Below, piece after piece: positions 1,002-38,256 of a stretch of DNA of 64,000 bases. Position numbers and translations under genes: made by a program. The DNA comes from Leucoraja ocellata (Eukaryota). Where the stretch lies: assembly GCA_036785375.1 (NCBI GenBank), contig JAWMAR010000026.1, positions 7,998,001-8,062,000 of the forward strand, read 5' to 3'. The notes under the pieces are model-generated. The model was not told where the DNA came from. It searched no databases and saw nothing but the letters and a program-made list of their open reading frames with translations. Numbering within the stretch: the first letter of the stretch is position 1; each line of letters begins with the position of its first letter.

Positions 1002-1313
1002 CGTAAACTACCAGCTTTGTACCAGTCCCGTTTAAAACTTTGGAACGGGTCAAGCTGCAGAAATAGAGCCCGGCGTCCTTCACTGTCACGTCCTCCACCC
1101 GTAAGACAGCGTTTCCCCCTCTCAGGAAATAAAACTGGATTCGTCTATCTGCACTTTCATCCAGGAATCTATTATCCCCATCTCTCCACCAATGCACTTT
1201 GTACGGCTTGTTGTCTGAGAACATTGGATAAATGCAATAAAGCACTGCCGAGTCACCCCGCATCAAAACTGCTTCTGGAACTTGTGTTACGGTCAACGGA
1301 CCATCCCCACCAG
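1002..1313 (-). CDS. Gene A exon 2: V-set Ig domain with germline-joined J-like G strand; remainder of the gene lies left of the window
   Basis: Acceptor ttcccgacag|, donor G|gtgagt, 312 bp, phase 1-1. Hallmarks LYC, HWWR, DAGLYFC, NGTGTKLVV. Confidence 0.92.
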
Positions 1314-9097: not shown

Positions 9098-9329
9098 TAA
9101 GAGGGAACTGCAGATGCTGGAGAATCGAAGGTTACACAAAAAAGCTGGAGAAACTCAGCAGGTGCAGCAGCATCTATGGAGCGAAGGAAATAGGCAACGT
9201 TTCGGGCCGAAACCCTTCTTCAGACTGGGGAAGGTCTGAAGAAGGGTTTCGGCCCGAAACGTTGCCTATTTCCTTCGCTCCATAGATGCTGCTGCACCCG
9301 CTGAGTTTCTCCAGCTTTTTTGTGTAACC
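9098..9329. mobile_element. Penelope-derived palindromic element with two inverted hammerhead-like motifs, inserted in the Rex1 RT
   Basis: Long inverted repeat flanked by a 14-bp target-site duplication aacaacatcaggtt (9084-9097 and 9330-9343). Confidence 0.75.
9232..9267 (+). ncRNA. Minimal type I hammerhead ribozyme motif (Penelope type)
   Basis: AGGT-CTGAAGA-A-GGGTTTCGGCCC-GAAAC-GTT-GCCT: core boxes, helix II stem, palindromic helix III, helix I AGGU/GCCU. Confidence 0.6.
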
Positions 9330-11371: not shown

Positions 11372-11426
11372 ATGTTTATGTTTGCCGTGCTGCTGTGTCT
11401 CTCGACCCTTCATATGAGTTACACAG
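11372..11426 (+). CDS. Gene B exon 1: signal peptide (MFMFAVLLCLSTLHMSYT)
   Basis: ATG at 11372, 55-bp hydrophobic leader, donor G|gttaac, phase 1, 168-bp intron to the V exon. Confidence 0.85.
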
Positions 11427-11594
11427 GTTAACATATTTCCCTCTATTAAAGGAAAATAACAGGGAAAAGGTCAATCCGCGAAAAGTATAAGATGTACAAC
11501 TTACTTTTGGGTCGAGCTATTTCAGCTATTTGCATTTTTATCAATCCGTTCATTGTCATTTCACATGTTTAACGTTTGTTTTTAATTTTGACAG

Positions 11595-11918
11595 TTACTG
11601 AAGAGGCCTCCTCGTTCAGGGTGCGTCAGATTCCTGATGAGGTAACGAAAGTGAAAGGTGAAAATGTATCCCTATACTGTACTTTCCCGAACTTCGGTCA
11701 GAATGCACTGGTGGATGTATACTGGAAGAGAGACGGTCAAGAAGGGACGTTGAATCCCACCGCAAACAGGAGGATGACAATGCACAATGTCCTGAAGGGA
11801 TCTGCCGAATTACATCTGTTGAACGTGAGCTTCCGTGACTCCGGGATCTATTATTGCAGTGTGAGAGGCGGGAATGGAAAGATTTCCAAAAGCAATGGCA
11901 CGAGGATTATTGTACACG
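11595..11918 (+). CDS. Gene B exon 2: V-set Ig domain (VJ-type)
   Basis: Acceptor ttttgacag|, donor G|gtgagt, 324 bp. Hallmarks LYC, VYWKR, DSGIYYC, SNGTRIIV. Confidence 0.92.
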
Positions 11919-13365: not shown

Positions 13366-13647
13366 TGTCACCGACGCCTTTGAAGATAAAACAGATGAAC
13401 GCTCCTTCCCTGGCCCTAAACTGTACAACTGCTCCGTTTTTCCCGGCGGACTGTGAACTCACTTGGTATAAAGATGACCAAGAAATAACTTCTGGAATAA
13501 ATACCACTAAAATACGGAACGAAGAGGGATTATACGTTGCTTCCAGCTTCCTGTATGTAGTGGATCGCCGATCGGTTTATAGTTGCCACGTGTTTCACGT
13601 CACCCTCCTGGTTCCGACCGTTGAAACTCACAGTTTTCCTGGAATGG
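13366..13647 (+). CDS. Gene B exon 3: C1-set Ig domain
   Basis: Acceptor cgtttcag|, donor G|gtatga, 282 bp. C1 motifs LNC-TTAPFFP-x6-W, GLY, YSCHVFH. Confidence 0.92.
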
Positions 13648-16600
13648 GTATGAGGTTTATACCTTCAATAACGTCCTGAGATATATCACTGTTTTATGTC
13701 AAGACATTTCATGAATTCCCACCCAAAACTTACGCTAGACCGTTTTTAAGTATTTGGATGGAGATTGCGGGCATGTCTTTGTTGTAATGGAAAGGTATGA
13801 CAGTCTACGAAACTAGATACGGGTTAGTAAGAGATATCGCGCAAAGATGACAGTTGTGTTTGCATGTTTGTGTAATAGGGACGCTGGAACTCGCTGTTTA
13901 TCTCCGATCATATAGAGCTCTACAGCATGGAAGCAAGGCCCTTCGGCCCGCCCCGTCCACGTCAAGCAAGTTGGCATTCTGGCCTAGACCCATCTCTCCG
14001 CATTTGACCATTTCCCTTCTAAATCTTTCCTATCCAAATATCTATCCAAAATTCCTTTGAAAATCACAATTGTGTACGCTTCTGTAGCTTCCTCGGAAAG
14101 AAATTGCCCCTTGGACCCCTCGTAACCTCGTAAAACGACTGTAAGCATTCACTTTCTCTACGCCCATCATAATTTTATATACTTGAATTAGGTAAACCTC
14201 CCATGCCTCATGGGAAGAGCTCACAACCTGCTCAGCATCACCGGATAACTCCATCCATGAATTCCAGGTAATACCTTGGTGAATCCTTACTGCACCTTTT
14301 CCAACATAATGACAATCCAAGGATGATCAGGACTGCACACAGAACACCAACAAGTCGTCTCAGCAAATACTTGTAAAGCTGTTTCCCTGCATAATAAGGA
14401 CATTGCTTAAATGTAAAATAATGTGTAGTCGTATCGCTGTAACGTTGGAGAGGGATGGTAATCCAACATGGAAACAAGTTCCACGGGACCAAACCAATGA
14501 ACCGGAGGGCAGAGACCAAGGGAAATTTAGTAACATACGCGGTCATTAACTCAGATATTTTTTTTAATCATCGTTGCTGATCTGTGATGGGATTCAAATA
14601 GAAGAGGAAAATGAAAATAAAGGAGAAATAAGAAAATATGCGAACACAATACGGATAAACGATAATTCCAGCTGATGGTTTCTATGTTTAGTTAATTTTA
14701 TGCGCCCAGCATCTGGAATTTATTCCATTATTTTCATTCATAGAAACTGCCAGTTTTCATCCAATTTTCTGAAATTGGTGAATTCATTGCTCAGGTCTAA
14801 GGTTGCTTGCAGTTAGAAGAGATTCCATAACACATTCTTGTGACTTCGTTGAGGTAGGACGAGAAGTAAAGGAAACAAATTGAAAATGTAAGATGGATTA
14901 CGATTTTAGGTACAATTGGAAATTGAGTTAACATCTTCATATTGACAGTGTTAGTTTTAGAGATACCGCGTGGAAACGGAGCCTTCAGCACACCAAGTCC
15001 ACGCTGATCATCGATCACCAGTATATAGTTCTCTGTTAGAACACTTTTTCATCCACTCCCTGGACACTGGCGACAACTTACATAAGCCAATTAGCCTACA
15101 CACTTGCACATCCATTCTATGTGGGATGTGCGAGGAGACCATATCACCCGAAGAACACCAACGCAGTCACATTGAGAACGTACACCTTCCACACGGACAG
15201 CATTCATGGTTCGGATCAAACCTGTGTCTCTCGCGCTGTGATGCAGCAGCTCTATAGCTGCGCCGCTGTGCTTTCGCAGCTCTCGTTTGCATTTGGTGTT
15301 TCCCAACTAAAATAGACCTTACCAAATATACTGGAGCAATTGAAATCTGAAAAGGTGAACTGTGGCGGGAGTACGCAGATCACTGGATGGTGTTAATGGA
15401 AGTTTTGAATGGACAAACATTATAATATCTATCGCCCAATGCGCAGGTACGGTGAGAAGGCAAATAGGTGTTCGCGGATACAGGACAGTGAAGATGGTTT
15501 GTGGTGAAATAATGCCTTTGCGAGAAAGAAAGTGGAGGGAGATCAGCAGTCAGGCGGTCCGATGGTCGCTTAATGATTCATTGAAGTTAGAGGGTAGTAG
15601 CATGGAAGAAGTTTACAAGAATGGACCCGGGAATGAGTAGGTTAAATTATGATGAGCGTTTGTCGGCACTATTCGCTAGAGTTTAGAAGATGAGACGGGA
15701 CCTCATTGAAACATACAGAATAGTGAAAGGCTTGGATAGAGTGCATGAGGAGAGGATATTTCCATTCGCGGGCGAGTCTAGGACCAGAGGTAATAGCCTC
15801 AGAATTAAATAATTAAAATAAGGCCGTGGAGGCCGTCAGTGGATATTTTTTAGGCAGAGATTGATTAGTACAGGTGTCAGAGTTTATGGGGAGAAGGTGG
15901 GACCGTGGGGTTAGGAGAGAGAGAAAGATCAGCCACGTTGGAATGGCGGACGGCCGAATGGCCCAATTCTACTCCTATCCCCGATAACCTCTCCTGCTGT
16001 CTCGATTGCTGCCGCATAAATCCACACGTCTTTGAGATGTTGGAGAAACCTGGAGCACCATGAGGAAACCCAAATGATTACAGGGAGAGAGTGCAAACTC
16101 CACATAGACAGGGCCCAACGCCCAAGTTAAAATTGAACCTGTATCTCTGGTGCTGTGAAACAGCAGCTCTACTAGATGTGTCGCTGTTGAGCACAAGGTG
16201 GTGATTGCCCTTCTCAGGGAACCCAAGGCCTGTTAAATCATCCTACGGAATGTTTCTGTGCCTTGCACTTGCTAAATGGCACCCATTGGTCTGGGAGTTG
16301 CAGGTTACCAATTGAAATAACGGGATTTTTTCGAACGCATTACTAATTGTGCAGCACTTAAAATTACTTAAGATTACTTACAGATTAACGGTGAATCTGT
16401 GGAATAATTTGCTACAGAAGGCTGTGCAGGCCGTCAGTGGATATTTTATAGGCAGAGATAGATAGATTCTTGATTAGTACAGGTGTTCGACGGTATGGGG
16501 AGAATGCAGGAGAATGGGGTAAGGAGGAAGAGATAGATCAGATATGATTGAATTGTGGAGTAGACGATGGACCGAAAGGCTTAATTCTACTCCTATTCCT

Positions 16601-18853
16601 TGTGACCGTATGAGCTTATGGACAAGGAGAAAGCTGGTCTTGTTCCAGGTGGGTGTTGGGACTAGATATCAGAGCAGCAGACTGATAAATTGAGCATGCA
16701 TGGTTGTGGACCAAACAATGATGGAGGCAAACACGTTGAGGTAAAGGGTGCTTATAGAAACAGCGATTCAAGGTTTCAAGGTCCGTTTATTGTCACATGT
16801 ACCAACTAAGGTCCAGTGAAGTTTGCGATTACAGAACGTGCGATTATCAGAAAATGCCAAACAATGTCTCAGAAAATACATATAGGTAATGGAGCCCGGT
16901 CACCTGGCTGAGTCGGAGGAAATGCGCTGGAGATAACGGTGCCAGTACGAGAGCTTGTAATGTGAATTAACGCAATGGCACAACCTCCTCGCTTACATGT
17001 TAGTTCTTTCTTGATAAATAATAAGATTTCCATTAGCTAAGTACCTGCTTTAACTTTAGTCACCATTATGAAATTCTCTCGACAGGTACCCCCCATTGTA
17101 TATTTTGTTCTTTTGTTTGATAAACCCAATCGTTTAATCTTGGTTGTCTCTTCATCGTTTGAGTTTTCATAAGGTACAAATGATAAATATAAATTTCCAC
17201 TTCCCCACTATTATGAATAATAAGCTCAATCGCAGCGACGGAGACTGTATACTTTTCTCCAGCCCCAAACCCAACGGTTCTAGTGTACACATTTTATGTA
17301 GTTAGAGGAAGAAAACAGGTGCTTGGGATCAGCTACCCCAATTGTACAAAACCTACTGTCGCCCCATTTCATTCCCTGCACAGTTCCACCAACTCCCCAC
17401 AAAATGACCATCACATTAATGACAAGGATAGTCACAAAATTCTGGCGTAGCTCAACGGGACAGGCAGCGTCTTTGGAGAGAAAGAATGGGTGACGTTTCG
17501 GGTTGAGACCCTTCTTCAAACTTAATGACTACGTATAATGGCAAATTAACCAACAATCCTGCAAGTGGTTGAGATTTGGGAAGATGTTAGAGTACCCTAC
17601 GAAGTAACGTGATCACCGTAGCAATATCAAAACCCCGGAGAACACTGGAGGCCAGATTTGATCCAGGGTCTCTGCAGATGTGAAACAGCAGAGTTAATAA
17701 CTGCGAAGATGTGCCAGAGTGTCACTTTCTCGGGGTTGTATAACGTGACTTACGTCTATATTGTTCAAACGATTTTGAAAGCTGGGATAGTGCATGTGCA
17801 ACACATCAATGGTGAATCAATGATTGGTCCGCCAAACCCTCTCAGAGATATATCACAACTCAGAATAATTCTGATCTTGTGTTGATAAATGAACCCTATC
17901 TACTGCAGTTATCTTTCCAAAATTTCAACAGTCGGTCGATATTTCAATTAAACAGCCTTTACGATATTAATGATCCCAAAACAGAAGACACAGTCCCGAA
18001 ACCCAGTAGAATAATCTATTTTACCGAATACTAAGTACATTACAGATCGTGCACGAGAAATCGTGTTTTTATTATGCGCAGTGGAATATATTTTTGATGT
18101 TTTCATTCCAGGTAATTCGTTTCCTTAATGTTTATATTTTGATTGCCGGAGAGTTGGGAGCTTCCTCCCTGTCACCAGTAACACGGCGAAACGGGGAGAG
18201 GGGGTGACAAGCGCATCCGTACAATGTCAAAATAGTATGTAGACATAAAGTGCGAAGGAGAAACAAGGGGAAATGTTTGAGATACTCAACAATCAGACAG
18301 TATGAAGAGTAAAAAAAAGCTCAATCTTTATAGGCTACTGATTGACATTTTTAAATTTTAGAATCCGTATTAAGGATGCATTTTGTTTGGAATTTTGACG
18401 AGATGCCACACGTGAGGCCGCTGAATAAAATAGAAGCGCAAGGCATTAAAGGCAAGGGATTAGCACGGATTAGAGATTGGCTGACTGGCAGAAGGCAAAT
18501 TGTGCCAATAAAGGGCCCTTTTGTGGTTTGTAGCGGTTGACTAGTGGTGTTCTGCAGGGGTCGGTGTTGTGTCTGCTACATTTTACATTATATGTAAATC
18601 AGGATGATGAAATTGATGGCTCTTTCGCCAATTTTTCAGATGACATTAAGGTGGGTACAGGGGCAGATAGTGCTGAGGAGGCAGGGAGGACTTGGACAGC
18701 TTGGGAGAGGGGGTAAATAAGTGGCAGATGGAATTCAGCGTAATAAAGTGAAAATGTGGAACCCATTCTGTAATCCCTGGTTCGTGTACTCTGATTATTT
18801 AATGAAGATAACCTCTGAAAAGTTATAATATTCAGCTTTTATTTTCCCTTTAG

Positions 18854-18964
18854 GAACACGCGTTAAACTCGTCTGCTTTCTGGCGGGTGGATTTGCCATA
18901 TGCGTGCTAATTATTCCAGCGTTGGTATGTTATGTCAGGCGGTACAAATTACACAGTACTGAAG
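18854..18964 (+). CDS. Gene B exon 4: transmembrane exon (GTRVKLVCFLAGGFAICVLIIPALVCYVRRYKLHSTE)
   Basis: Acceptor ttttccctttag|, donor G|gtaaga, 111 bp, phase 1-1. Uncharged hydrophobic stretch followed by basic stop-transfer residues. Confidence 0.85.
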
Positions 18965-19583
18965 GTAAGAAGTGATTTGATCCTTGTACGAAATTAGCGA
19001 CACAGTGCTGGAATAACTCTGCGGTTTGGCAACATCTGAATAGACAATGGATAGGGGACTTTTGGGGGCTGAGCCGGAACTTCGACTATCGATGTCCCCC
19101 GTAGATGCTGCCTAACCCGCTGAATTACTTCCGAAAATAGCAATGTTCAGTTGAAGGTGGAACGAGAAGTGCTGAAATAACGATTTAGACCACAGGGCCT
19201 TTTGCCGGCCGCAGCATTCTGTGGCAAACATCATTTTAACCGGTTTAAGCCGTTGGTTGCAAAATCATTGTTTTTGTTTGTTCTAAAAGAAGGCGTTTTT
19301 AAACACTTGGTGAAATGCTGCAAAGGTCGGGTTGTTTAAATAGGGGCAGTTATCACAGGAAAGCGGAAGCAAACAATAGGGTTTCAACTTTTCCGTGCGC
19401 TTTTCCTTAGCATTAGGACTAACGAGGAGAGGATTTGTTTAAATAACAAGATAGCATGATCGCAATGGTCAATTTCTGCAGCCGAACGAATCTGGTCACA
19501 ACTCGATTATTAACTGATTATCGGCAGGCAGGTTGTGATACGTTGATGATTAAATGTGGTCGTTTTATTATGTTCTCTACTAG

Positions 19584-19627
19584 CACCAGAAAATATTGAG
19601 GCCAGAACCTACCATTTCGAAACACAG
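19584..19627 (+). CDS. Gene B exon 5: short cytoplasmic exon (APENIEARTYHFETQ)
   Basis: Acceptor ttctctactag|, donor CAG|gtaatt, 44 bp, phase 1 to 0. Same length and phase as gene C exon 5. Confidence 0.72.
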
Positions 19628-20263
19628 GTAATTGTTTTGATGGTTTAACAGGATATTGATGGGACAACAGGATGGATTCACTTTTCGAGAAACTCTCTAT
19701 GTGCACCGTTTGCACTTTTCCTTATCCTCCCATATTCTTATGATATAGCCCATTATCGTCAGCGACGTGTACTTGCGTATCCTTCGAGTTATCCTAAATA
19801 GTTTATGTCTAATCCGTCTGTGTCGCGCGGATTATTTACTTAGTGAAGCATCACAACCGAGGCCCATCCTGTTCCAATTCAAAATTCACACGTCATATTT
19901 TTTTCGGAGTAGCTCGTTCTGATATATGACGGAAAATCTGCTAACATGTCTGAGCCCAGAAATCGCGTCAACTCTATATTTTCCTCGAAGTAATCATCCA
20001 ACACACTTCCGGTCAGTGTTTTGCCCCATGCGTTTCACGATTTGGCTAATAGTTCACTAATTATTCAGGAAACTCAAACCAATTAGATACGAGTTGCTTC
20101 CGTTTACTTTTTTAGTAATCTCATCATAGGGAAGTAACCATATATAACGATGGAATGACTGGTCGTGCAGACCCAGCTTCCACCCGCTTGTTGTGTGTTT
20201 GCTCGTCTTCGCAGTTGTTTGTAAATGCGGAGTTTATTCCCTTTCAAATAAATGTTCCCTCAG

Positions 20264-20350
20264 TATCCTTCGTATGCAGATATGAACTTCAGCGGACAGA
20301 AGAAAACTACGAAAAACAAACGCCACGAAGAACGAACAACCTATGGCCAG
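20264..20350 (+). CDS. Gene B exon 6: cytoplasmic exon (YPSYADMNFSGQKKTTKNKRHEERTTYGQ)
   Basis: Acceptor gttccctcag|, donor CAG|gtatgg, 87 bp, phase 0-0. Aligns by eye to gene C exon 6 (EERTTYGQ vs EESTVYAQ). Confidence 0.75.
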
Positions 20351-20446
20351 GTATGGTAAAAGCGGAAGTGTATTGCAAGGAAAATCCGTGTACGTCGCCC
20401 ATATGGGCGAATCAGCAGCTCATGATCTCTGATTATTTTTCGACAG

Positions 20447-20569
20447 GTCAAAGAAGTGTCAGAACATAAACTGACCTATGCAACTCTGGATCTCGCCGCT
20501 TCTCTGAAGCATTCAAGAACGGCGAAGAACAATGAAACAGAGTATGCAGGAATCAAGATTTTTCAATAG
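20447..20569 (+). CDS. Gene B exon 7: terminal coding exon with ITIM (LTYATL) and ITSM (TEYAGI)
   Basis: Acceptor tttttcgacag|, reads VKEVSEHKLTYATLDLAASLKHSRTAKNNETEYAGIKIFQ*, TAG ends at 20569. Confidence 0.85.
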   Translation, partial: VKEVSEHKLTYATLDLAASLKHSRTAKNNETEYAGIKIFQ

Positions 20570-20754
20570 CTGTGAAACCAGCTAGCGTCCATTCACTCTG
20601 AAGCGAACGATATTTCAATTACATAAACCTGATTAACATTGTGTCACAGATCGTACAGACAATCATTTACAAGACAATGCGCAGTGAGCAGGGAATTTTA
20701 ATGAGAGATGATCTACTTTGATGAATGTTACCCTTGAAAAGGGCTGTTCGGCAC

Positions 20755-20760
20755 AATAAA
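20755..20760 (+). promoter_or_regulatory. Candidate polyadenylation signal of gene B
   Basis: AATAAA about 185 bp after the stop codon. Confidence 0.55.
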
Positions 20761-21709
20761 CGCCTTTCACCGCAAATCCTAGCCAACCGCATAAGATCAT
20801 CGCTCTACCTTTTTCCTATCTAAGTGCCTGGGGAAATGCAAGTGAAAGGCTGTATTTTTGTCAGCTCGTCCATGGTAGTAACCACATTCTGTGTACATAA
20901 TTATCCCACGCTTTTCCACTCATCTAATTTTAAGCATACCCTCGCCAGTTAAACATATCTCCACAATATTAAGATAAAGACCCTGAACATCTATCCTGTC
21001 TGTACTCCTCATAGTTTAAGAAAACTGAACATATGCATCGTATGAAGCATTTTATCGGGATGTATCACAGGTGGCGTGGGAATAGCTCCATCCTAGACCG
21101 TAAGAAATAGCAGAGAATCGTGGACCAGCCCAGACCGTCACGCAAACCATCTCCCTGCCATTAACTCCATCTACACTGCGCGCTGCCTCGCAAAGCCATC
21201 GGTATAATCAAGGTAGGGTCTCAACCAGAACACTCCATCTTCTCCCCTCACCCACCAGGCAAGAGGGACAGAGTATGAAAACGCATACGTCCAGATCCAG
21301 TGACAGTTTCTTCCCAGCTGTGGTCGTGTCATTTGGATGGGAACATACAGGGCAAGATTAGCAAGTTTGTTGATGATACAAGTGAGTGGTTTTGCAGATA
21401 GTAAAGATTGTTGTGAAAGATAGCAGCAGGATCTGGATCGATTAGCCAGGTGGGCTGAGGAATGGTTGATGGAATGGAATACAGAGAAATGTGAGGTGTT
21501 ACATTTTAGAACACTTATGGGGTGAAATTTGATAGAATTGTCATGTATACCTCAAGCGTATGAGGCTGAATGGCGACCTGCTACACGTGTGTCAAATTAT
21601 TGAAGGAATAGACATTGACGATAGTCAGAATAGATTTCCAACTCAAGCCATATGAGAATCAAGAAGGCAGAAATAATAAGCAACACTGACATTCAAGAAG
21701 TAAAACGGA

Positions 21710-24936: not shown

Positions 24937-25047
24937 CTGGGCATACACCGTGCTTTCTTCAACGTATCTGCATTTAGTAGATGGTTTTAGACCAGCGATG
25001 TTTAGAGTAGTATACGTTAACTTTGGATCACATTCGGATTGCATTGT
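24937..25047 (-). CDS. Gene C exon 6: ITIM (LTYTTL) and first part of ITSM (TVYAQ)
   Basis: Acceptor taactttcag|, perfect donor CAG|gtaagt, 111 bp, phase 0-0. Reads TMQSECDPKLTYTTLNIAGLKPSTKCRYVEESTVYAQ. Confidence 0.82.
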
Positions 25048-26049
25048 CTGAAAGTTATCACAATTTGTTATAATTATTACATCAATCAACATATTTCCAA
25101 AAATACACCACCGCTGCTAGTAATGAACATTGTAAATTGTAGCAAAATACCAATGCCTTTATTAATATGAAAAATGTTATTATATTAATATTATATTTTC
25201 TTCTGCGAAAGAACAAATTGATTCATTTATTGCTGCTCTGGGTTGTCCAGTGATCATTGGCTAAACATAAGACTATGCATTAGCATCAAGCCAAACAAAA
25301 TATACTGCTAAGTAGAGTGATTTAATTTCTTTTTAATGTTCTTGCATGGAAATAGTTGCTGAAGGCCTCATCTGCATCATTTCCCAATGTTGATCGAATT
25401 GAAAGTAAATGTTCTCTCTTGTGTCTTTAAATTCAACTAGCTAGGGTTTATTTGAACGGGGGCGCCTTCTCTTACTGGTCCCCGTTTTGTGCATTTATGT
25501 GTTATATTTTATTTATTTGGCCACAGACTAGTTTGCCAGCCTTCTGTCTGCACTTAATTAAAAGCTTACTTGGGATGTTTCCCTTTCATTAAGCTTCTCT
25601 GCTGTATCATCGAAAAATACAAGTGAGAGAAAAACATTTTCTATTTACCATTTTCTGATGGTTCTCAAATTTATCAGTTCAAACATTTTCCAATACCGAA
25701 TATCCTTACTTGTTTATTTGCCATTGAGAGCATCAAACTATTGTGCATGGTAACCAGGCCACAATTGGAAACTTATTTTATTATTACTGTCACGGAGTGG
25801 CCCATGGAAACACCAATTTCCATTCTAAATTTGACTTTACTTAGTATTGCACCACTGTCTACTTAGCCACCAGAACTGATTTTCCTGCCGACTTTCATTT
25901 AACATGAAACTCAATGAACAAAATTAAACTGTCCTTCCATCTTAACCCCACTGCTTAAAAATCACATCTTTAAACCTTCAAGTACAGACCCCGCATTCAA
26001 AACTTGGCATGGTAACAGTATCAGTAGTATCAAAAACCTATACAAGTTA

Positions 26050-26632
26050 NNNNNNNNNNNNNNNNNNNNNNNNNNNNNNNNNNNNNNNNNNNNNNNNNNN
26101 NNNNNNNNNNNNNNNNNNNNNNNNNNNNNNNNNNNNNNNNNNNNNNNNNNNNNNNNNNNNNNNNNNNNNNNNNNNNNNNNNNNNNNNNNNNNNNNNNNNN
26201 NNNNNNNNNNNNNNNNNNNNNNNNNNNNNNNNNNNNNNNNNNNNNNNNNNNNNNNNNNNNNNNNNNNNNNNNNNNNNNNNNNNNNNNNNNNNNNNNNNNN
26301 NNNNNNNNNNNNNNNNNNNNNNNNNNNNNNNNNNNNNNNNNNNNNNNNNNNNNNNNNNNNNNNNNNNNNNNNNNNNNNNNNNNNNNNNNNNNNNNNNNNN
26401 NNNNNNNNNNNNNNNNNNNNNNNNNNNNNNNNNNNNNNNNNNNNNNNNNNNNNNNNNNNNNNNNNNNNNNNNNNNNNNNNNNNNNNNNNNNNNNNNNNNN
26501 NNNNNNNNNNNNNNNNNNNNNNNNNNNNNNNNNNNNNNNNNNNNNNNNNNNNNNNNNNNNNNNNNNNNNNNNNNNNNNNNNNNNNNNNNNNNNNNNNNNN
26601 NNNNNNNNNNNNNNNNNNNNNNNNNNNNNNNN
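26050..26632. other. Assembly gap (N run) within gene C intron 5
   Basis: Run of N. Confidence 0.99.
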
Positions 26633-28912
26633 TTTGTGACCATCCTTTATTCTCTCTTCTCCAATATATGTTCCTACCATCTCCCCATGTAGCAAAACCG
26701 CAAAGATCAATCAGGCGAATGTTCCCTGCACTATTTCTATCACGGGTATATTCCAATTACAGTATAATTGGGTTCTGTATAACTGGAATCACGCGGTGCA
26801 CTGGTTGTTATTGCTCCAGATGAACTATCCGAGAGCGTTACCATCACCACGGGAAATATTATGGGCTGTATCGTAGGCTCATACATGTTAACTTGCTCAT
26901 AAATGACCTCCAGTCCATCTTAAATCACATCTGGGGTGTTATTCCGTTCCGCTTGCAAATTCTCAGAAATTCAAATAGTCCATCCCTGTTGGCAATTTCA
27001 CGACCGGATAGACTAAAGGTGTTGGATGACACCACAAAATGTTTAGTCCAACCGATTACCCTGAACATCAGTGGCATTGCGGTCACTGAATCCTCCAACA
27101 TCAACTCTTTAGTACTCATCATAGATCACAAATGCACGAGGATTAGCCTCATAAATAGTAGAGCTGCAAGAGTAGGCGGTGTATCCTGCGAAAAGCTACT
27201 CCAATCACTGACTCCGAAACAGTTTCTCATCGTCGAAGCATAATTTGAGCATGTGATAGAATGACTTTCATCTGGCTAGCTGAGTGCAGTTCCAGCAAAT
27301 GTTCCAATTCCAGACAACTGACACCATGCAGGTCAAATCGGTGCATTTGGTTACCAACCCAGCTACCGTAAGCAGTTATTCCCTTCACCAGTGTACTATT
27401 TACTACGTACACTGCAGCTATTCATCCCATCCATTGCATAAGCGCAAAGCAATCTTTTGATCTCCACTCCTAGAGAACAAAGTTTGAATGGGATCACTGC
27501 CACGTGTAGGTTCCTCTCCGAGTCATACACGTTCTTTACTTAGAAATTGGTTGCCAGTCCTCCCTCCTCGTTGTGTCTAAATCCCCCAAGCTTCTACACG
27601 AAGCAATATGACAGCACCTTTATCTGAAGCACGAGAGAGATTCAAGATTATGCCCTTTAATCACCACCTGAATTTCAGTTAGTGGTGTATTATGGATTAT
27701 AGCCTCGCTTATTCACGAAAAGTAAATTAAACTAAAGCAAAGGCCCTCAATTCTGCCGTTTCTATTAGATTTCCCCCCTTTTTGAGTGTATTTTGTTAAT
27801 TGCAATTAGACAAAGCTACGAACGAAGCACTCAGTTACATCTTGAAATTCCATTCAACTGTGATTCATTCGCTGCTCCGTGAAATGGCGCATGTTGCATA
27901 TACCTGGGTATATATTGTGCTCGGTTCTGCATATTTATCTTCGGCAGATCGCTTTGCATCAGCGATACGGAAATCACTGTAAACAATTGCTTCATTGGAT
28001 TCCAAATGCTTAGTCTAAAAAACAGTATTATGTTAGAATTATTTCCTACCAATCAAAATATTTTCCATAAATTTACCACAATAGTCAAAATTAAACATCG
28101 TACATTCCAGCAGCATGCCAAATTCGGATGAAAAAAGCTATCGGAAAAGGAATGTATCGACTTGCATAGACCTTGATGACTGGTCTCCTTGAGAGGCGTG
28201 CGTTTCTTTGACTGTGACGAGATCTTCCTATGATGGGGTGAGCTCAGTGAGATTTCAACAGACTGATAGACTGTCAAGTCTAGCGTATGCATTGGGTTAA
28301 ATTGAGGTAATTTCACTAAAATTTGGACGCATGAGAAGGCAGCCAGACAATTGTTTACAAATCCACGGTATAGGAGAGATATGATGGAGTCATGTAATTT
28401 CCCATTGATGTGAAACCCAGTACCAGGAACCATTGTAAAATAATACGGGAAAAACGATTTCAAACTGTAATGGGGACAGCGTTCTTCTCCAGGAGAGAAG
28501 AAAATCTATCTCACAAATCACTCGAATCCAAATTATGACATTTATTCAAAATGATGTGAACATTGTTATAATATGAGAGAGAAGTACAGCGCGAAACAAG
28601 TCTCAGGGATCAAGGGACAATGGGAGAAAGTATTGAACGACCAAGAAAGGTCGAAGGACCATGTCGCGTATTCCTTCTCCCAATTCTACGTTTCTATCGC
28701 CATGCTTCCATTAACAAACATCAAGTACACAGATGGGCCTGCAGTAGCTGTGTTTGCATTTGAAGGCATCACTGAGGAATTTCATGTTTCATGTTGCTCC
28801 AATTTCATCACGCGTTGACTTGGAGAATTTTGTAATTATCCAAACGAAGGTAATAATTGGGAGGGTGTCCGAGTGCTGTTTGAACGTCTCTGCAGTATTA
28901 TACATGTCTTAC

Positions 28913-28956
28913 CTTCGTTGTATGCCCTGCACGTCCTTTCGATTTTCTGCACGTCC
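28913..28956 (-). CDS. Gene C exon 5: short cytoplasmic exon (GTCRKSKGRAGHTTK)
   Basis: Acceptor cctcactctag|, donor AAG|gtaaga, 44 bp, phase 1 to 0. Confidence 0.72.
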
Positions 28957-29616
28957 CTAGAGTGAGGCAATTTTGAATACAAAACTTTTGACCATTACAA
29001 AGAATCGTAGTAGCCAGTAAATCTGGCAGCATATACATTTTTTTAAAACTTTTGAGTTTGTATACATGTATGTAGTAAAACTAATATCACGATACCAATT
29101 GTTAAAAATCTACAGGATATTAGTCCTCTTCGAGTCGGAGCACATTCAATTACAGAATGTGTTTCTGCATCACCGACCCATTTTTCACACTCAACCCCTT
29201 ATCCCACAACCTGCCCCAAAACACCAAGCATCTATCCTGCATGAACAAATCGGTGACTAACTCAAAAGTTAGCTTCCGAGAAACGATGCACTCAGTGAGA
29301 TGGGGCGTATGTACCACAGACTAGCTAACGCATGCAGTGTCCGATCCAATATAACTCTCCAATATTATTTTCTCCTGCATCTCCGTTTCTTCCCACTCTC
29401 CAAAGACGTACAGATTTGTAGATTAAATGGTTTGGTATAACTGTAAATTGTCCCTAGTGTGTGTACGATAGTGTGACTATGACGGGGTCGCTGGTCGGCG
29501 CCGACTCGGTGGGCCGAATCACCTGTTTCCGAGCTGTATTTCTAACTAAAGTATTGCTGAATTTTGATTGGTTAATTTTATAACAATCTCGAGATCAAAA
29601 AGTTTAGGAGCCTTAC

Positions 29617-29715
29617 CTTTCCGTTTCACAATGAAAATAATGATTATGAGAGGTATCAATCCTGCTCCGATGCAACCAAAAATCCAGTTATGAAATGGAT
29701 TATCGGGTAATGGAA
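29617..29715 (-). CDS. Gene C exon 4: transmembrane exon (VPLPDNPFHNWIFGCIGAGLIPLIIIIFIVKRK)
   Basis: Acceptor ttgtttacag|, donor G|gtaagg, 99 bp, phase 1-1. Uncharged TM followed by KRK. Confidence 0.85.
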
Positions 29716-31256
29716 CTGTAAACAATAAAATAATGACCAGTTGTAATATATTTATAGTGTTAATAATAGGGCAGGCTGCCATTTCAAAAGCATAATTCTG
29801 TCTTTGTTTATATCGAGTTGACGTCGACGGGAATAAACACACATGAACATTGCCCATGAACGCAGTTGCTGTCTTTTTCATTTTTGTCTCATGCTAGTTG
29901 TGTGTAAATAACATATGATCAAAGAATCATTGAGGTGCAGAAGAACCAAATATTTGCCTGCAACCAATTCTAAACAGTATATAAGTATGTAGCTTGGATA
30001 GGTCGCAGAGCGTAACAAGTAGTGATTTATAGCTGTGTCGGTACAACAAGACATTTTGTGGAATGTCTACGAATGGGAAGGGATAAAGAGTTATATACTC
30101 TTCACCTTGTGATTCAACAGTGTGGCTGGAAAAAAATCTCCACCGTCATTACGTTTATTGGCGGCCCTGGTGTGCTCGAGGCAGAATTATAGACGATGCA
30201 GTATTCATGGAATATTGGGAATGTAATTAAGGAAGTTGAAATTTGCTGTGAAATCCGATCCCAAATAAAATTAATTTCAAGAGAGTGGTAGGAAAATCGA
30301 AGGTAGATTTCGCTCGCTGTGACTGAACAGTGGAAATACCATTCGTGACAAATGATGTGCTGTACAACACAGAAACACATAATCATTTGTTTTTTAAATC
30401 CAGAGTATCGATGGAACCCGATTTTTTGGAACCGTCCATTCTAATGATGTGCATGACCTTGTAGTCTACTTCCAAAGGCGAATTGATGTCCGCTGTATTC
30501 AGGATGGCACGGCGACCATCGAAAATCCATACAGAACACAGACGAAAATGCTCCTTTGACTTAGAATATCAGTGAGCAACCTGGAGGGGTTAGGCATGGC
30601 AGCAGATTCACGCTATCTTCCTCAAACACAAGAAACATTCCATGAATGATTTTATTGATTTGCGGTAATGATTCGATTAAATTTGTCAAGAGGCCCATTA
30701 ACACGTAAAATATGCAATGGTTTGGGACGGCACAACGCGCAACTCTAGTGAAAGGACGCGCACATATCACTTTCTGGCCTGTCTTTTGATTTTACTTCAA
30801 ATGCATCAAATGGCAACTTACATGGGTCAGCTTTTATGTTTGGTTACAAGTTTTGTAAGAACCATAAACTGATTACTGCACTGAATCTTATTCCACCCAC
30901 GCTTTCCCATCCGATAATTGAAGAGCAACATCCTATATCCAGCTTTTTCTCTGTAAAACTCTCTTCATTACTTCGTATGCCTTCTTGAAAGCTTGTTTAT
31001 TGATTAGTTGACTGGTTTCATTCTATGAGCGACAGCATTAATAACCAACATTTTGATTGAAGCTTTGTCGAATCTTTTTAATTCAAAACTCTTCATTGAC
31101 GTCAGCTACTGCAATCATTCCTCAAAATGTCTTGTTACCTCTTTACAAAATAAGTCTATCCAATATTTAGACAAACGCGAATTAATGATATAACTCTTAT
31201 AAGAAGGAGGTACAGATGTTTGATAAAACCGAAGATAGACACAAAAAAACTGCAGT

Positions 31257-32268
31257 AACCATATAACCATATAACAATTACAGCACGGAAACAGGCCATC
31301 TCGGCCCTACAAGTCCATGCCGAACAACATTTTACCCTTAGTCCCACCTGCCTGCACTCATACCATAACCCTCCATTCCCTTCTCATCCATATGCCTATC
31401 CAATGTATTTTTAAATGATATCAACGAACCTGCCTCCACCACTTCCACTGGAAGCTCATTCCACACCGCTACCACTCTCTGAGTAAAGAAGTTCCCCCTC
31501 ATGTTACCCCTAAACGTCTGTCCCTTAATTCTGAAGGCATGTCCTCTTGTTTGAATCTTCCCTATTCTCAAAGGGAAAAGCTTGTCCACATCAACTCTGT
31601 CTATCCCTCTCATCATTTTAAAGACCTCTATCAAGTCCCCCCTTAACCTTCTGCGCTCCAGAGAATAAAGACCTAACTTATTCAACCTTTCTCTGTAACT
31701 TAGTTGTTGAAACCCAGGCAATATTCTAGTAAATCTCCTCTGTACTCTCTCTATTTTGTTGACATCCTTCCTATAATTGGGCGACCAAAATTGTACACCA
31801 TACTCCAGATTTGGTCTCACCAATGCCTTGTACAATTTTAACATTACATCCCAGCTTCTATACTCAATGCTCTGATTTATAAAGGCTAGCATACCAAAAG
31901 CTTTCTTTACCACCCTATCTATATGAGATTCCACCTTCAAGGAACTTTGCACGGTTATTCCCAGATCCCTCTGTTCAACTGTATTCTTCAATTCCCTACC
32001 ATTTACCATGTACGTCCTATTTTGATTTGTCCTCCCAAGGTGTAGCACTTCACATTTATCAGCATTAAACTCCATCTGCCATCTTTCAGCCCATTCTTCC
32101 AAATGGCCTAAATTACTCTGTAGACTTTGGAAATCCTCTTCGTTATCCACAACACCCCCTATCTTGGTATTATCTGCATACTTACTAATCCAATTTACCA
32201 ACCCTTCATCCAGATCATTGATGTACATGACAAACAACGAAGGACCCAACACAGATCCTGAGGCACCC
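31257..32268 (-). mobile_element. CR1 LINE 3' portion nested inside a Penelope hairpin (gene C intron 3)
   Basis: Open RT C-terminus (SVLGPSLF, KYADN, RPNLEYGVQFWSP) with an (ATATGGTT)n tail. Hairpin halves at about 31222-31260 and 32269-32415. Confidence 0.88.
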
Positions 32269-33559
32269 CAGCGGAACAGGCAGCATCTCTGGAGAGAAGG
32301 AATGGATGACGTTTCGGGTCGGGATGAAGAAAGGTCTCGACCCGAAACGTCACCCATTCCTTCGCTCCGGAGACGCTGTCTTTCCCGCTGAGTTACTCCA
32401 GCTTTTTGTCTATCTTTAATTTTATAACTTGGTTGTTAGATTTTCTCCATTATATACAAGAGTTTCCAATGTACAAGCAATGCCCATTATTCGGGCAGGA
32501 AACAGCGTGTCCTCAAAATATTCGCAAAAATTCTGTCATTGATTTTCTAAAGCAGTTATTTTTCTTAATTTTGCCAATGGTAGATCAGGCCAAGATATAC
32601 GTCTCCCCCCCCCCCCCCCCCCACCGATGTTGAGCGTCTACTACTCTCAACAGTCAACGAATGTCGTGAAATGCTCCCCACCTATTGGCACAAGGGACTT
32701 CTTAACATCTTGTCCTGTGTACTTGATTCAGGTCACCATGACAAAATAAATGTTCAAATGTCTCAGAGAATCTATTAAATTGAAACCATTTGATGGATTC
32801 GTTTACGCGTGGGCGGAACCTGCCATCTTTTTGCAAAGTACATTGGAATTCATTGCAAATTGAATTCTAACAAATAGTGTCAGTGATCTTGGAATTGCGG
32901 ACCATCATTCATTTTAAAATGTCAATTATAACCAATGCTGCGAAATCTGCATGCTTGGGATTAAGGCTCGATGTAAAAAGTAAAATATGGAGAGGATAAA
33001 GGATCAAGAATAATGGCAATTAAGAGAAGGACACACAGCAGTACTTCGTGAAATGGTGTCATCCACCGCCCCCTTTACCTCGACAGGTTTAAAAATCCTT
33101 CAACAGGCATGAGTGAATCACTTGTAAAGTTTAAAGAATCTCGCTGGGTGCTGATCGGCTTGATCGCATGGGGAGAATAAATTCCAGTGCAAATCTGGAG
33201 GAATCCATTGGAAGGGTAAATTACAGACCGGGTGAATCCAACGTAATATGGCAGGAGGTTATTTGCACCATAGGCGAGGCCATATGAAGAATGTATAAGT
33301 ACGTGATGTATGGCGGGGAAGGAAGCGCGCAGTTTCAACAAAGCAAGCTCTTGCAAATTACAATGCGATCATTTCTGTTTTCGTAGTTGTCTTGGCTAAT
33401 CAATAATTATTGTCTATCCATTAAGATATGCTGGAAAATCTTGGAGTTTTAACTGTAGATTCCATTGTAGACGGCTAAGGGAAATATACAAGGCTGGTTG
33501 GGAAGCATAGTAACATGGGGAATGGTTCGTCAGTGAAAGGGAATTTATTGAAGAGTATA

Positions 33560-34420
33560 ATTCAGGATTGGATTTATTGGCAGAAAATTGATTAATTACG
33601 GTCAGTCACCTTGGCTTAGTCCACGGCAGGACAGGCTGATCCAGAAAATTGAGATGGATCGGATTCAGGGTGACTTGGTGGTATGGATTCAGAACTGGCT
33701 TACTCAAACAAGACAGAGTGTTGAGGTAGAAGAGTGTTATTATGGTTGGATCTCTGTGATAAGTGCACTTCTACCAGGATCAATGTTTGTGATTTCTATA
33801 TGAATGACTTGGATGTAAACGTAGATGAGTTCATGCGTATGTTTGCAAACGATGCCAAAATGGGTGAAGTTGCGGACATCCAGCAGGGCTGTCAAAGGAT
33901 ACAGTGGAAATATATATCAGCTGCAGAAATTGGTGGACAAATGACAGATGGAGTTTTATCCGAGGTAGCGTGAGGTGTAGCACTTTAGGAGGTCGAATGT
34001 AGGATGGACGCATACAGTAAACAGCATTGATGTACAAACGGGTCTTGGCTCCGTCGACAGCTCCGTCCATTATCAGCGCCACAATGCTGCCTTTAACCAG
34101 GATGCTGTCTAGATTAGAGGGTATTTGGTACACGGAGAGGTTAGAACAGATTTGATTGTCTTTTCCAGAGCAGTGCAGGCTGAAAGGATTCTGGATGGAA
34201 GTATATAAAATTATGAGTGGCACAACTGGTCAGAGCCTTTGTTGGTGTAAAAACGACTAGAGTAGGTTTAGGTTAGATGGACAAGTTTAAAGAAGAGATG
34301 CCGGGCAAGTGCTATGCACAGAGCGTGGTTGGTGCCTGGAATGTGCTGCCAGACGTGGTAGTGGATAAAGATACCAAGATACAAAGGAACAATAATGACA
34401 TTTAAGAGGTTTTTACGGAA
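33560..34420 (+). mobile_element. Old degenerate CR1 fragment
   Basis: WIQNWL, NDLD, FAND remnants. Confidence 0.7.
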
Positions 34421-35213
34421 TGCAAAAGGTCGACCTGAATAACTTTAGGAGGCGTGGATATGGTAGACCATCAGATTCATTCTCCAGGGCTTGACATTAT
34501 CATTCTTAGACTGCATAGCTATACGCTGAGATGGGGAAGGTTTCTTGGAGATGTGCGGGGCAAGACTTTTACTAAGTGTATTGAGATCCTGGGACGGATT
34601 GCGAGGGGTGGTGGTGGAGACAGACACTGTAGTGGCGTTTAGGAGGCTGTTAGACAGGCACACGAGGAAGGATCGTGACCCAAAACGTCACCCATTCCTT
34701 CTATCCAGAGATGCTGTCTGTCACGCTGAGTTATTCGAGCATTTTGTGTCTATCTTTGGTGTAAACCAGCATCTGCAGTTGGCAGATGGAATCGAGGGAT
34801 ATGGATCATCTACAGGCAGATGAGACATCATGTCGTGTGCAATCATTGTCGGATGAAGGGCCCTCTCCTGTGCGGTACTATTGTATGTTTTACGTTCAGC
34901 CTCCTGTACACTAGGGGGGGGGGGGGGGGGGGGAGGCCCAGCCAACCACCTCTGTCTCTCAGTAAGTCAAATTACTCCTGACCTTACCATAGCGTGGTGT
35001 TTTGACACGAAAATATACTTTCATGAGTATAACGTTCATGAGACACACACAAGTATGGACATTTGTCCCAACATCGCCAATTGTTGTGGTACACACGTGT
35101 CAACGGTTACACAACGGTGCTAAATGGACAATATGGTTTATTAACCACACCTTATCCTGAGGTAATAATGGATATGTGGCCAAATTGCATTGAAAATGTA
35201 TCGTTATTCTTAC

Positions 35214-35516
35214 CTCGACTGTAGAAAGTATAACTGATATTGGTTGGATTCGGAAGAGAAATATGAGACACCTGGCAGGTATAAACTGTCCCGCTCTCCA
35301 CATCGTCTGTCTCGGTCAGGCAGCTCCAAGCTTCGTACAGTCCTGCTGATGTCTGCGTTTTGTTTGGCTCAATCTTCTGTATAATATCTGACCCATTTTT
35401 GTACCAGGTAATATTCAGATCAAGAGGAAAGAACGTTGCTGTTTTACAAACGAGAATCAGAGTAACCGATGTGTTCTCCGGCAGCATGGTGGTCAAGCTC
35501 AGAGGAGTTGGGGGGT
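35214..35516 (-). CDS. Gene C exon 3: C1-set Ig domain
   Basis: Acceptor ttttattttccag|, donor G|gtaaga, 303 bp. LVCKTATFFPLDLNITW, GLY, YTCQVSH. Confidence 0.92.
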
Positions 35517-36572
35517 CTGGAAAATAAAACGATTCTTTTAAATTTCACCAGTCCCGTAATTTTCGTGACGAATCAAATTTCATTGCAACCTCGAAAACAA
35601 TCTTAATTGAATTATATTTGTTTTCAGCCTGGTTTTATAACCAATGCACTTACAGTGAGTTCAAACTGTTAAGTATTTTCCTTGTTGTGGTATTATCTAA
35701 CGACTAATTTCCTTCCTTTTAATCCTCGTTGTCGTATGCCTTGATTTTACAATTGTGGTATATTGTACAACAACTTACTTCATAAATATGGCGTTTCCGC
35801 TACTACTCGCAGCGCATGTAAATGATGCGTTCCGCTCTGTGCAGGGACATTCGGAGCCAAAGCATTAACTTGTTTTTTTTTAATCGTGTTCGCGATTTTG
35901 ATTATAATTTTGTGTTAATTGTACAAAATGTAATCAATAATAACAGCTCGACTATCCAAATTTTACAAATAAATTCTTTCTCGTTGTTCAAATAACTAAC
36001 TCGGGCAGAAGGTTTATTCAGAAGTAACTTGAGGTTAAAAAAAAAGCTTTAATTTACAAGGTCAGAAAAATGTGAGAAAACATATTGTACATCTGGACCA
36101 GAGGGAACAGCTCGCTATTTAGAGTTCCATTAAGCACAGAAGAAAGTGTTGCATTACTTCGAGCACAATTATCCCAGCACCATCACGTTGCCTTAAGAAT
36201 TTTGGATGGTATGTAAAGGCCTCTGAGACGATATCAATGACATTCATTCATGAAAATGTCACTACCCCATCCATTTACAATAGCTCGACAGTGATAAGCT
36301 TCTGCGTAAACCGCCCAAAATGTAGGCTGGTGATTCAAACTACAAGTACATTTGCACCATTTAAAAACAAACCGTTTTCAATATCTACATGATCTTAATT
36401 TTATTTCCATTGCTGCTATCGCTACAACCATAAGTGGAAAGTTAACGGAAAATATATGTTAATGTAACAATGTGTAGGAAGGAACTAGAGATGCTGGTTT
36501 AAGCCGAAGGTAGACATAAAAAGCTGTAGTAACCAGCGGGTCAGACAACATCTCTGGATAAAATGAGTAGTT

Positions 36573-36600
36573 GACGTTTCGGGTCGAGACCCTTCTTCAG
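36573..36600 (-). ncRNA. Minimal hammerhead ribozyme core (Penelope type)
   Basis: Minus strand reads CTGAAGA-A-GGGTCTCGACCC-GAAAC-GTC. Helix I is imperfect. Confidence 0.5.
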
Positions 36601-37583
36601 ACTAAATGTAACAATACAGATCTTTATCCCTCAATGACTGACTCGCTTCACGGCTCCTATATAATTTCAAATGGCATCCGGAACAATCAGAAATGTGACC
36701 AAACTTATACTACGGATCAACATGGTACCAATTGAGCAAGTGCAAAGGAAGTTCACCAGAATGTTGACTGAAATAGAGGGGCTAGTTATAACGAGACACA
36801 GATGATGAATAAAAAATGAGACATTTGGTGAACTTGGTTTATTCTCAGTAGAACATAGGAGGCAGAAGAGTAACCTTGTAAAAGGTTATTTTTTTAAATA
36901 TCGGGGCCACACAGACGGAGTCCCCCCCCCTGCGTGGAATCACGCACTGTGAGGCACGGTTTTTAGGTAAAAGTGGAAAATGTAAACGAGGAAGGTTTGC
37001 ACACTTGGAACATCTGCCACAGAAGAGGGTGCAGTACAATAATAACATTTAAATCGCGTTAGACTGGTAATTACTGAGAAGCGTTATAGAGGGATATGGT
37101 CCTAATGCAGGCAAACGCCATCAACATATATAAGTAGCACGGTCGGCAGAGACGACGTGGGCAGAACGGGCCAGTTGTTGTGTTGTATGATTCTATAATT
37201 CTGTAATTCCTTACAATTTAGATAAAAAAAATATGACAGGTCCAAAGAAATCAATTAAAAAATCTCCTTGATCAGTACCACACTCGGAACCCTGCATACT
37301 TTCACTCTCAACTACCTGTATCGTGTGTTGTTGGTTTCAGTAACAACCTTCCCTCGGCGTTGAAGCAATTCTAAACTATACGCGAAAGGTGTTTTAATTC
37401 TGTCAAGCAGAAGGTGTGGAAGGCATCATTTACTCTCTCAATAAGTCTATTCGGATTCGTTGGTAATTGCGTCAAAAATACTATCTAACCCATCACAAAA
37501 ATCATATTATTTCAAAGCACACAGATGATGTAGAAAGCGCAATTTCTTTAACTTGATTGAGCTAATCGCTTTTAGTTGGTGAA

Positions 37584-37902
37584 TAGACAGTAGACAGTAT
37601 GTGCAGGAGTTAGCCATTCGGCCATTTGAGCCAGCACCGCCATTCAATGTGATCACGGCTGATCATCTCCAATCAGTACCTCGTTTCTGCCTTCTCCCCA
37701 TATCCCCTGACTGCTATCTTTAAGAGCCATATCTTGCTCTCTCTTGAAAGCATCCAGAGGACCGGCCTCCACCACCCTCTGAGGCAGAGAATTCCACAGA
37801 CTCACAACTCTCTGTGTGAAAAAGTATTTCTTCGTCTCCGTTCTAAATGGCTTACTCTTTATTCTTAAACTGTGGTCCCTGGTTCTGTTTTCCTCCAACA
37901 GT
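37584..37902 (-). mobile_element. Short CR1 3' end inserted just downstream of the gene C V exon
   Basis: FFTQRVVSLWNSLP plus CR1 3' UTR. Absent at the paralogous site (about 960). Confidence 0.88.
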
Positions 37903-37944
37903 TGAAGTTAACCGATCTGGCTCACTCCTCTCCCCGAAACTCAC

Positions 37945-38256
37945 CGTAAACTACCAGCTTTGTACCAGTCCCGTTTAAAACTTTGGAACGTGTCAAGCTG
38001 CAGAAATAGAGCCCGGCGTCCTTCACTGTCACGTCCTCCACCCGTAAAACAGCGCTTCCCCCTCTCAGGAAATAAAACTGGATTCGTCTATCTGCACTTT
38101 CATCCAGGAATCTATTATCCCCATCTCTCCACCAATGCACTGTGTACAGCTTGTTGTCTGAGAAGATTGGATAAATGCAGTAAAGCACTGCCGAGTCACC
38201 CCGCATCAAAACTGCTTCTGGAACTTGTGTTACGGTCAACGGACCATCGCCACCAG
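37945..38256 (-). CDS. Gene C exon 2: V-set Ig domain (VJ-type)
   Basis: 312 bp, canonical AG/GT. 8 nt differences from the gene A V exon by manual count. DAGLYFC and NGTGTKLVV present. Confidence 0.92.

Follow-up and report, generated by a model that had tools for sequence, protein, structure and literature searches.

Immune receptors that occur in pairs and carry ITIM/ITSM tails are well established, and the birth of activating twins from inhibitory genes is a pattern familiar from KIR, Ly49 and Siglec genes of mammals. Little is known, by comparison, about the receptors that inhibit or activate the innate immune cells of sharks and rays. We analysed a window of 64,000 nucleotides of Leucoraja ocellata DNA (contig JAWMAR010000026.1, here C26, positions 7,998,001 to 8,062,000) containing gene B, a member of a family that is antigen-receptor-like outside and SIRP-like inside and whose cluster represents a large set of candidate receptors of these cells.

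Among described systems, the SIRP family, as portrayed in the relevant parts of PMC3716694 and PMC2785349, resembles gene B in its V plus C1 ectodomain, uncharged transmembrane (TM) segment, two ITIM-ITSM cassettes and clustered pairs. It differs in having two C1 domains where gene B has one, in forming a separate clade and in occupying another gene neighbourhood; furthermore, SIRP-beta uses DAP12, whereas the twins of gene B carry Arg. All four tyrosines of human SIRPA lie in a single last exon, while gene B has one cassette per exon.

NKp30 (NCR3) shares with gene B a single-exon VJ domain and was among the top Foldseek matches to it (29-30% identity, small margins). It also shares with the gene B twins a TM Arg, and the passages of PMC6514059 on NKp30 and NKp46 describe this residue as pairing with CD3-zeta or FcR-gamma. 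In contrast to gene B, which has a C1 domain, an uncharged TM segment and a four-tyrosine tail, NKp30 is described in the corresponding part of PMC12227049 as MHC-linked and as lacking both C1 and an ITIM tail. PRARP, Xenopus VJC1 and UrIg likewise have a VJ exon followed by C1, with V and J unsplit; UrIg differs in having several C domains and an MHC or antigen-receptor complex location, according to the section of PMC12227049 that treats it. Finally, PD-1 has an ITIM followed by an ITSM, yet consists of V, stalk, TM and one cassette, whereas gene B has a C1 domain and two cassettes; cartilaginous-fish orthologues of PD-1 are described separately (PMC11599192, in the part used for this comparison).

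Gene B is a non-rearranging V-C1 receptor gene

A seven-exon model with AG/GT boundaries, running from 11372 to 20569, gives gene B an open frame of 341 amino acids comprising a leader, V domain, C1 domain, TM segment and three tail exons (Table 1). The structure model of the V domain has a pLDDT of 90.8, and the C1 domain contains the FFP motif and a Cys-to-Trp gap of 13 residues. Rearranging antigen receptors carry V and J on separate segments; in gene B the J-like strand lies within the V exon and is followed by a GT donor, and the gene therefore does not rearrange.

Table 1. Features of gene B and its relatives. Positions are those of the window unless prefixed with C26.
Feature	Position	Strand	Remarks
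Gene B exon 1, leader	11372..11426	+	ATG start, phase-1 GT donor
Gene B exon 2, V domain with J-like last strand, non-rearranging	11595..11918	+	Pfam V-set E 1.5e-13
Gene B exon 3, single C1 domain	13366..13647	+	Pfam C1-set E 6.2e-12
Gene B exon 4, TM segment, core without charged residue	18854..18964	+	
Gene B exon 5, 44-nt tail linker	19584..19627	+	Phase 1 to 0; AG/GT ends, frame kept, aligns with paralogues
Gene B exon 6, cassette 1	20264..20350	+	Phase 0, AG/GT ends
Motif 1, PSYADM	from 20267	+	Y276, codon 20273-20275; ITIM-like; cassette 1
Motif 2, TTYGQV	from 20336	+	Y299, codon 20342-20344; ITSM-like only via V supplied by exon 7; cassette 1
GT-AG intron separating the cassettes, 96 nt	20351..20446	+	Absent from X2 contig
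Gene B exon 7, coding part, cassette 2	20447..20569	+	Phase 0; stop included
Motif 3, LTYATL	from 20471	+	Y312, codon 20477-20479; strict ITIM; cassette 2
Motif 4, TEYAGI	from 20537	+	Y334, codon 20543-20545; strict ITSM; cassette 2
Gene B 3' untranslated stretch	20570..20984	+	AATAAA at 20755; in same X2 contig
Twin of gene B	C26:7,978,911-7,989,236	+	Just upstream of window
Twin copy	C26:8,475,866-8,486,204	-	
Gene A V exon (matched part)	1003..1293	-	C1 and Arg-bearing TM exon left of window
Gene C, same family	24937..38236	-	V ~37946-38236, C1 within 35155-35544, TM 29617-29715
Gene C cassette exon, single	~24937-25047	-	Last exon not found

The splice between exons 6 and 7 was seen in one 602-nt contig from a single run (X2) of unrecorded type. 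This contig equals 20289-20347 plus 20444-20984, with zero mismatches and no extra letters; it omits exactly 96 nt, and with GT..AG at the cut +3 the omitted stretch is intron 20351-20446. It fits gene B because a 99% identical duplicate has three differences in exon 7. The junctions 5' of exon 6 are based on splice sites, open frame and homologues rather than reads, exon 5 resting on the model and its paralogue alignment. Three of 12 raw RNA runs (X7, X11 and X14, at 5-25% per run) gave no cover of gene B exons, a result without weight, while runs X1, X3 and X4 showed DNA-like coverage across introns. Exon 6 starts about nine codons downstream of its start in ray and shark relatives, and a longer form is ruled out by an in-frame stop just upstream of 20264.

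Between genes A and B, the window holds an LTR-type element (3900-6370) with matching ends and gag/pol-like pieces. LINE reverse-transcriptase pieces were found at ~8500-10400, 31341-32435, 41884-43299 and 46541-47962.

The tail carries four tyrosine motifs in two cassettes

The four motifs reported in the initial annotation are all present in a single forward frame, and its assignment of one pair to each of exons 6 and 7 agrees with the phase of both exons and with the splice in the X2 contig. The tyrosines are spaced 23/13/22, and two further upstream tyrosines (Y267 and Y273) match no motif. Three of the four motifs fit the strict ITIM/ITSM patterns, and when the 87-residue tail was shuffled 100,000 times this count was attained 20 times; all four fit a looser pattern, which no shuffle of 100,000 matched, although this pattern was widened post hoc with the sequence already known.

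The first ITIM had been described as degenerate. We read it instead as a conserved variant because P-S-Y opens motif 1 in most of the gene B subfamily, in sharks and rays alike, and a paralogue has P-T-Y-A-D-L. Motif 2 is the unstable site: its Y+3 residue in gene B is the valine encoded by the first codon of exon 7, whereas relatives mostly have T at this position, and Mobula and Hemitrygon have lost the motif. A donor after Y+2 likewise seems to mark the end of the first cassette in other skate paralogues. Proteins of the sharks Heptranchias and Heterodontus have four tyrosines at 23/13/23, and this conservation, together with the motifs, supports the proposal of a phosphatase-recruiting inhibitory tail. 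Judged by these features, the tail of gene B is real, conserved and of inhibitory type.

It had also been suggested that the two cassettes derive from exon duplication. This holds at the level of the family but leaves no significant mark within gene B: when exon 6 was compared with exon 7, the observed score was reached by 393 of 5,000 shuffles at the protein level, by 902 of 5,000 for the spacer only and by 766 of 3,000 at the DNA level. Profiles of 14 first cassettes and 15 second cassettes from the family, in contrast, match by spacer alone (p=5e-5). Duplication is further supported because family tails vary in copy number, with 7 of 37 hand-picked tails having no cassette, 14 having one, 13 having two and 3 having three. 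By this comparison of sequences, the cassette is a duplicated module predating the shark-chimaera split, the trace of which has faded within gene B itself.

Predicted activating twins have arisen repeatedly in the cluster

The V exon of gene B found 56 matches among 100 scored genome candidates, five of them at 80-100% identity, and its tail has five copies in the genome. Fourteen V exons lie within 7.83-8.04 Mb of C26. Further family clusters were observed about 4 Mb away (C26 11.96-12.15 Mb) and on two small contigs, C578 and C1270. An inverted copy of nearly the whole window lies at C26 8.40-8.47 Mb (95-98% identity), with NECAB-like and Hydin exons doubled as well; two explanations fit, a segmental duplication or the presence of a second haplotype in this assembly.

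The twin of gene B is 94% identical to it in the V domain at the amino acid level (97.5% at the nucleotide level). Its TM exon is intact but only 67% identical, with a Leu-to-Arg change near the outer end. The exon 5 donor is broken, and read-through meets a stop soon after. Relic tail exons persist whose splice sites are intact and whose frame is still open; in them, three of the four motif tyrosines are changed (P=0.028; 11 changes, 51 sites) and only the last ITSM is kept.

Comparable changes were found elsewhere. Gene A is 96% identical to gene C in V, has a Gly-to-Arg change in TM and has no copy of the gene C cassette exon, and is predicted from these features to be the activating twin of gene C. 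Gene A was also matched at 982-1419 of the window (minus strand), and its TM exon is 6 nt shorter. The gene at C26 7.910 Mb has a Gly-to-Arg change in TM and a stop directly after it. Arg gain with tail loss thus occurs in three subfamilies, and four other genes have an Arg-TM exon of a different type. The changes in the gene B twin could reflect pseudogene decay, a reading disfavoured by the three separate Arg gains accompanied by tail loss.

Among 83 family proteins, 34 have at least two motifs, 9 combine Arg with a short tail, and the other 40, which include partial models and isoforms, belong to neither class. The short Arg-TM forms of Mobula and Heptranchias are 88-95% identical in V to an inhibitory form of the same species and ~50% identical to each other, a pattern that suggests sequence exchange within pairs. 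In RefSeq relatives, the Arg-TM exon type differs from that of the skate twin.

The part of PMC3716694 that sets out what defines a paired-receptor family gives three features, and each has its counterpart here in sequence: similar ectodomains (V identity of 91-97% in five skate pairs), clustered separate genes, and both inhibitory- and activating-type members, with tyrosine tails and Arg-TM short tails, respectively. The cluster accordingly reads as a paired-receptor system that has repeatedly made predicted activating twins from inhibitory genes. What appears new at this level is a gene B twin that has so similar a V domain with a TM Arg and tail loss, and the recurrence of these changes in two other subfamilies, offering a codon-level view of the repeated birth of such twins.

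Gene B belongs to a separate cartilaginous-fish family

Relatives of gene B were found in rays, sharks and a chimaera, and those modelled in RefSeq include P0002 (Mobula), P0010 (Heptranchias), P0011 (Heterodontus) and P0039 (Callorhinchus), the Callorhinchus protein having three cassettes. Compared with gene B, the RefSeq ray relatives lack tyrosine 2 and have an added C-terminal tyrosine.

A V+C1 tree was built from 43 rows and 199 of 254 columns, leaving out NKp30, four rows that lack C1, and P0094 of lungfish, whose V domain had not been picked up. Support was 97/97 for the family and 95/88 for SIRP from coelacanth to bat, with an open fork between them. Gene B fell outside the SIRP clade and grouped with two ray and three shark proteins (96/95), the gene B subfamily in the tree consisting of P0002, P0005, P0010, P0011 and P0015. 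Presumed PRARP/VJC1-type genes also lie outside the family clade, joined to it by the open fork, in a tree that has no named PRARP row. Gene B is thus a member of a clustered, separate cartilaginous-fish V-C1 receptor family. We found no description of the family in the literature searched; it may be covered by Ohta 2019, Kinlein 2021 and Flajnik 2012.

The coelacanth entry P0192/P0150 has a V-C1-TM layout and one tyrosine pair at a spacing of 24, and its C1 domain scored highest (68.8 bits) among non-shark proteins. It is a candidate bony-fish relative by sequence and sits outside the family clade in the tree.

Domain scores point in the same direction as the tree. With the family V profile, SIRP V domains scored at most 33 bits, compared with 45-52 bits for V-C1 proteins of frog, turtle, coelacanth and bichir, whose labelling as PRARP-like is a guess, and 51-58 bits for three turtle multi-V proteins or similar. 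When the V model of gene B was used in Foldseek, NKp30 took ranks 1, 2, 4 and 7 by small margins, and a second structure aligner left many V and I domains tied. NKp30, VNAR, CD79b and NCAM topped the lists of both fold searches, again by small margins; SIRP chains were absent among the matches listed and may still lie below them. In gene B and the scanned cluster genes, the TM exon is preceded by a single V exon and a single C1 exon, and no V-C1-C1 ectodomain was encountered among them.

The gene neighbourhood differs from that of SIRP

Neighbour exons were picked by a crude scan and then checked against Pfam. To the left of the cluster lie PTB, COQ9, anamorsin (CIAPIN1), GST, LRR and septin genes, and to the right ABM and Hydin genes; we read PTB as DOK4, LRR as DNAAF1 and ABM as NECAB2, and take these neighbours to be genes of human 16q. 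The neighbours read include no MHC gene, and a genome-wide MHC search was insensitive. At C26 7.70-7.75 Mb lies a tandem repeat whose unit contains part of a 7TM receptor alongside a GST gene.

SIRP adjoins NSFL1C and FAM110A on human 20p13. In the skate, contig C667 carries a SEP/UBX gene and FAM110 within 240 kb containing no V or C1 exon, the family and SIRP profiles used there being ones that do detect the C26 cluster. Gene B is therefore absent from the SIRP site, since the NSFL1C-FAM110 locus has no Ig exon and gene B lies elsewhere. At 270-430 kb of C667, the FAM110 gene and its flanks appear to be tandemly repeated upstream of the NSFL1C-like gene. A SEP gene on contig C14 was rejected as NSFL1C because a P450 exon adjoins it; we read it as UBXN2B, presuming the gene order.

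Together, the tree, the V-domain scores and the neighbourhood indicate a separate family and lend no support to the suggestion that gene B is possibly a basal SIRP-alpha relative lacking one C1 domain. Another route to the similarity would make the family a whole-genome-duplication sister of SIRP, both descending from one VJ-C1 receptor with a two-cassette tail and residing on sister chromosomes. A constrained family-plus-SIRP clade was not rejected (p-AU 0.277), and the two cassettes are shared with SIRP, whereas the likeness of the tails outside the motifs is weak. Where gene B has a spacing of 23/13/22, SIRP-alpha proteins of bat and bird have 24/17/26, and a lungfish protein shows 23/15. 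Eight SIRP spacers with a proper second motif beat their own shuffles (p 0.004-0.064), but once Y+4, Y+5 and the position preceding motif 2 were taken out, only one of the eight stayed below p 0.05, and two unrelated tails behaved alike. SIRP-alpha also ranked 5 of 9,087 when the full-length family profile was run against the PDB, although this ranking adds up several domains; in PDB searches with V-only and C1-only profiles, multi-domain chains drowned out other matches. Duplication links human 16q and 20 as sisters, and the paralogy of 16q with 20 and 8q (NECAB and DOK pairs) keeps the sister reading alive, but our literature search found no paper supporting the 16q/20 paralogy. Set against the low V scores of SIRP, this evidence leaves a sister relationship unlikely. 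We would venture only as speculation that the family is the surviving sister of SIRP, a VJ-C1 paired system as old as jawed vertebrates, with a cassette exon ancestral to the SIRP-alpha tail, at least three Arg-twin conversions in skate, and a role as the main self/non-self cluster of shark and ray innate cells.

Predicted signalling of gene B and its twins

We consider it probable that gene B encodes a spliced V-C1 receptor whose double docking tail recruits SHP-1/SHP-2, accompanied by Arg-bearing activating twins. The structure, exon 6-7 splice, conservation, clade, neighbourhood and twins form the observed part of this proposal. Binding of a ligand at the V domain would lead Src-family kinases to phosphorylate the tail tyrosines, and each Y-x22/23-Y pair could then bind the tandem SH2 domains of one SHP-1/SHP-2, cassette 2 presumably being the stronger phosphatase site. 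Such docking would damp immune-cell activation. The Arg twins might pair with an ITAM adaptor, either FcR-gamma or CD3-zeta, and signal in response to ligands, or to pathogen mimics, recognised by the same V domain. Gene B thus likely works like SIRP-alpha in mechanism while descent from SIRP is not supported by our analyses, and the system as a whole would work like SIRP-alpha/beta and is probably not a SIRP orthologue.

ITSMs may also signal positively through SAP-type adaptors, and the tail could be a SLAM-like switch or adaptor dock, turned on or off by the SH2 protein present. Two of the four gene B motifs fit the ITSM, and the relic exon of the twin keeps the last ITSM alone. We regard this alternative as very unlikely: motif 2 fits the ITSM in the gene B lineage alone, an ITIM followed by an ITSM at a spacing of 22-23 is the SIRP-alpha/PD-1 design, and since Arg twins exist, the form with the tail should be the inhibitory partner.

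The least likely alternative makes gene B a genuine SIRP-alpha orthologue and CD47 binder in which one C1 was lost or had never been acquired: despite the likeness of the tails, the RefSeq name 'tyrosine-protein phosphatase non-receptor type substrate 1-like' given to several relatives, and a coelacanth SIRP query that found no better SIRP candidate in the skate genome (122 of 575 candidates scored), the separate clades, the non-SIRP neighbours, the other loose names and the NKp30 fold ranks all oppose it. A search of the genome for the CD47 family was blank, but so was one for MHC class II beta, and this result carries no weight.

Returning to the predicted phosphatase-recruiting family, its members are already modelled in databases under loose automatic names only, including SIRP-alpha-like, tapasin-like, CD276 and H-2-like. 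Such inconsistent naming carries no orthology, and a label of 'SIRP-alpha-like' should not be taken for it. By eye, a neighbouring gene is close to a letter-for-letter match to a named Amblyraja radiata protein. Finally, models P0006, P0009, P0020, P0013 and P0001 omit cassette 1, C1 or the exon for the TM segment, and such models hint at isoforms that are V-only, soluble or limited to one cassette.
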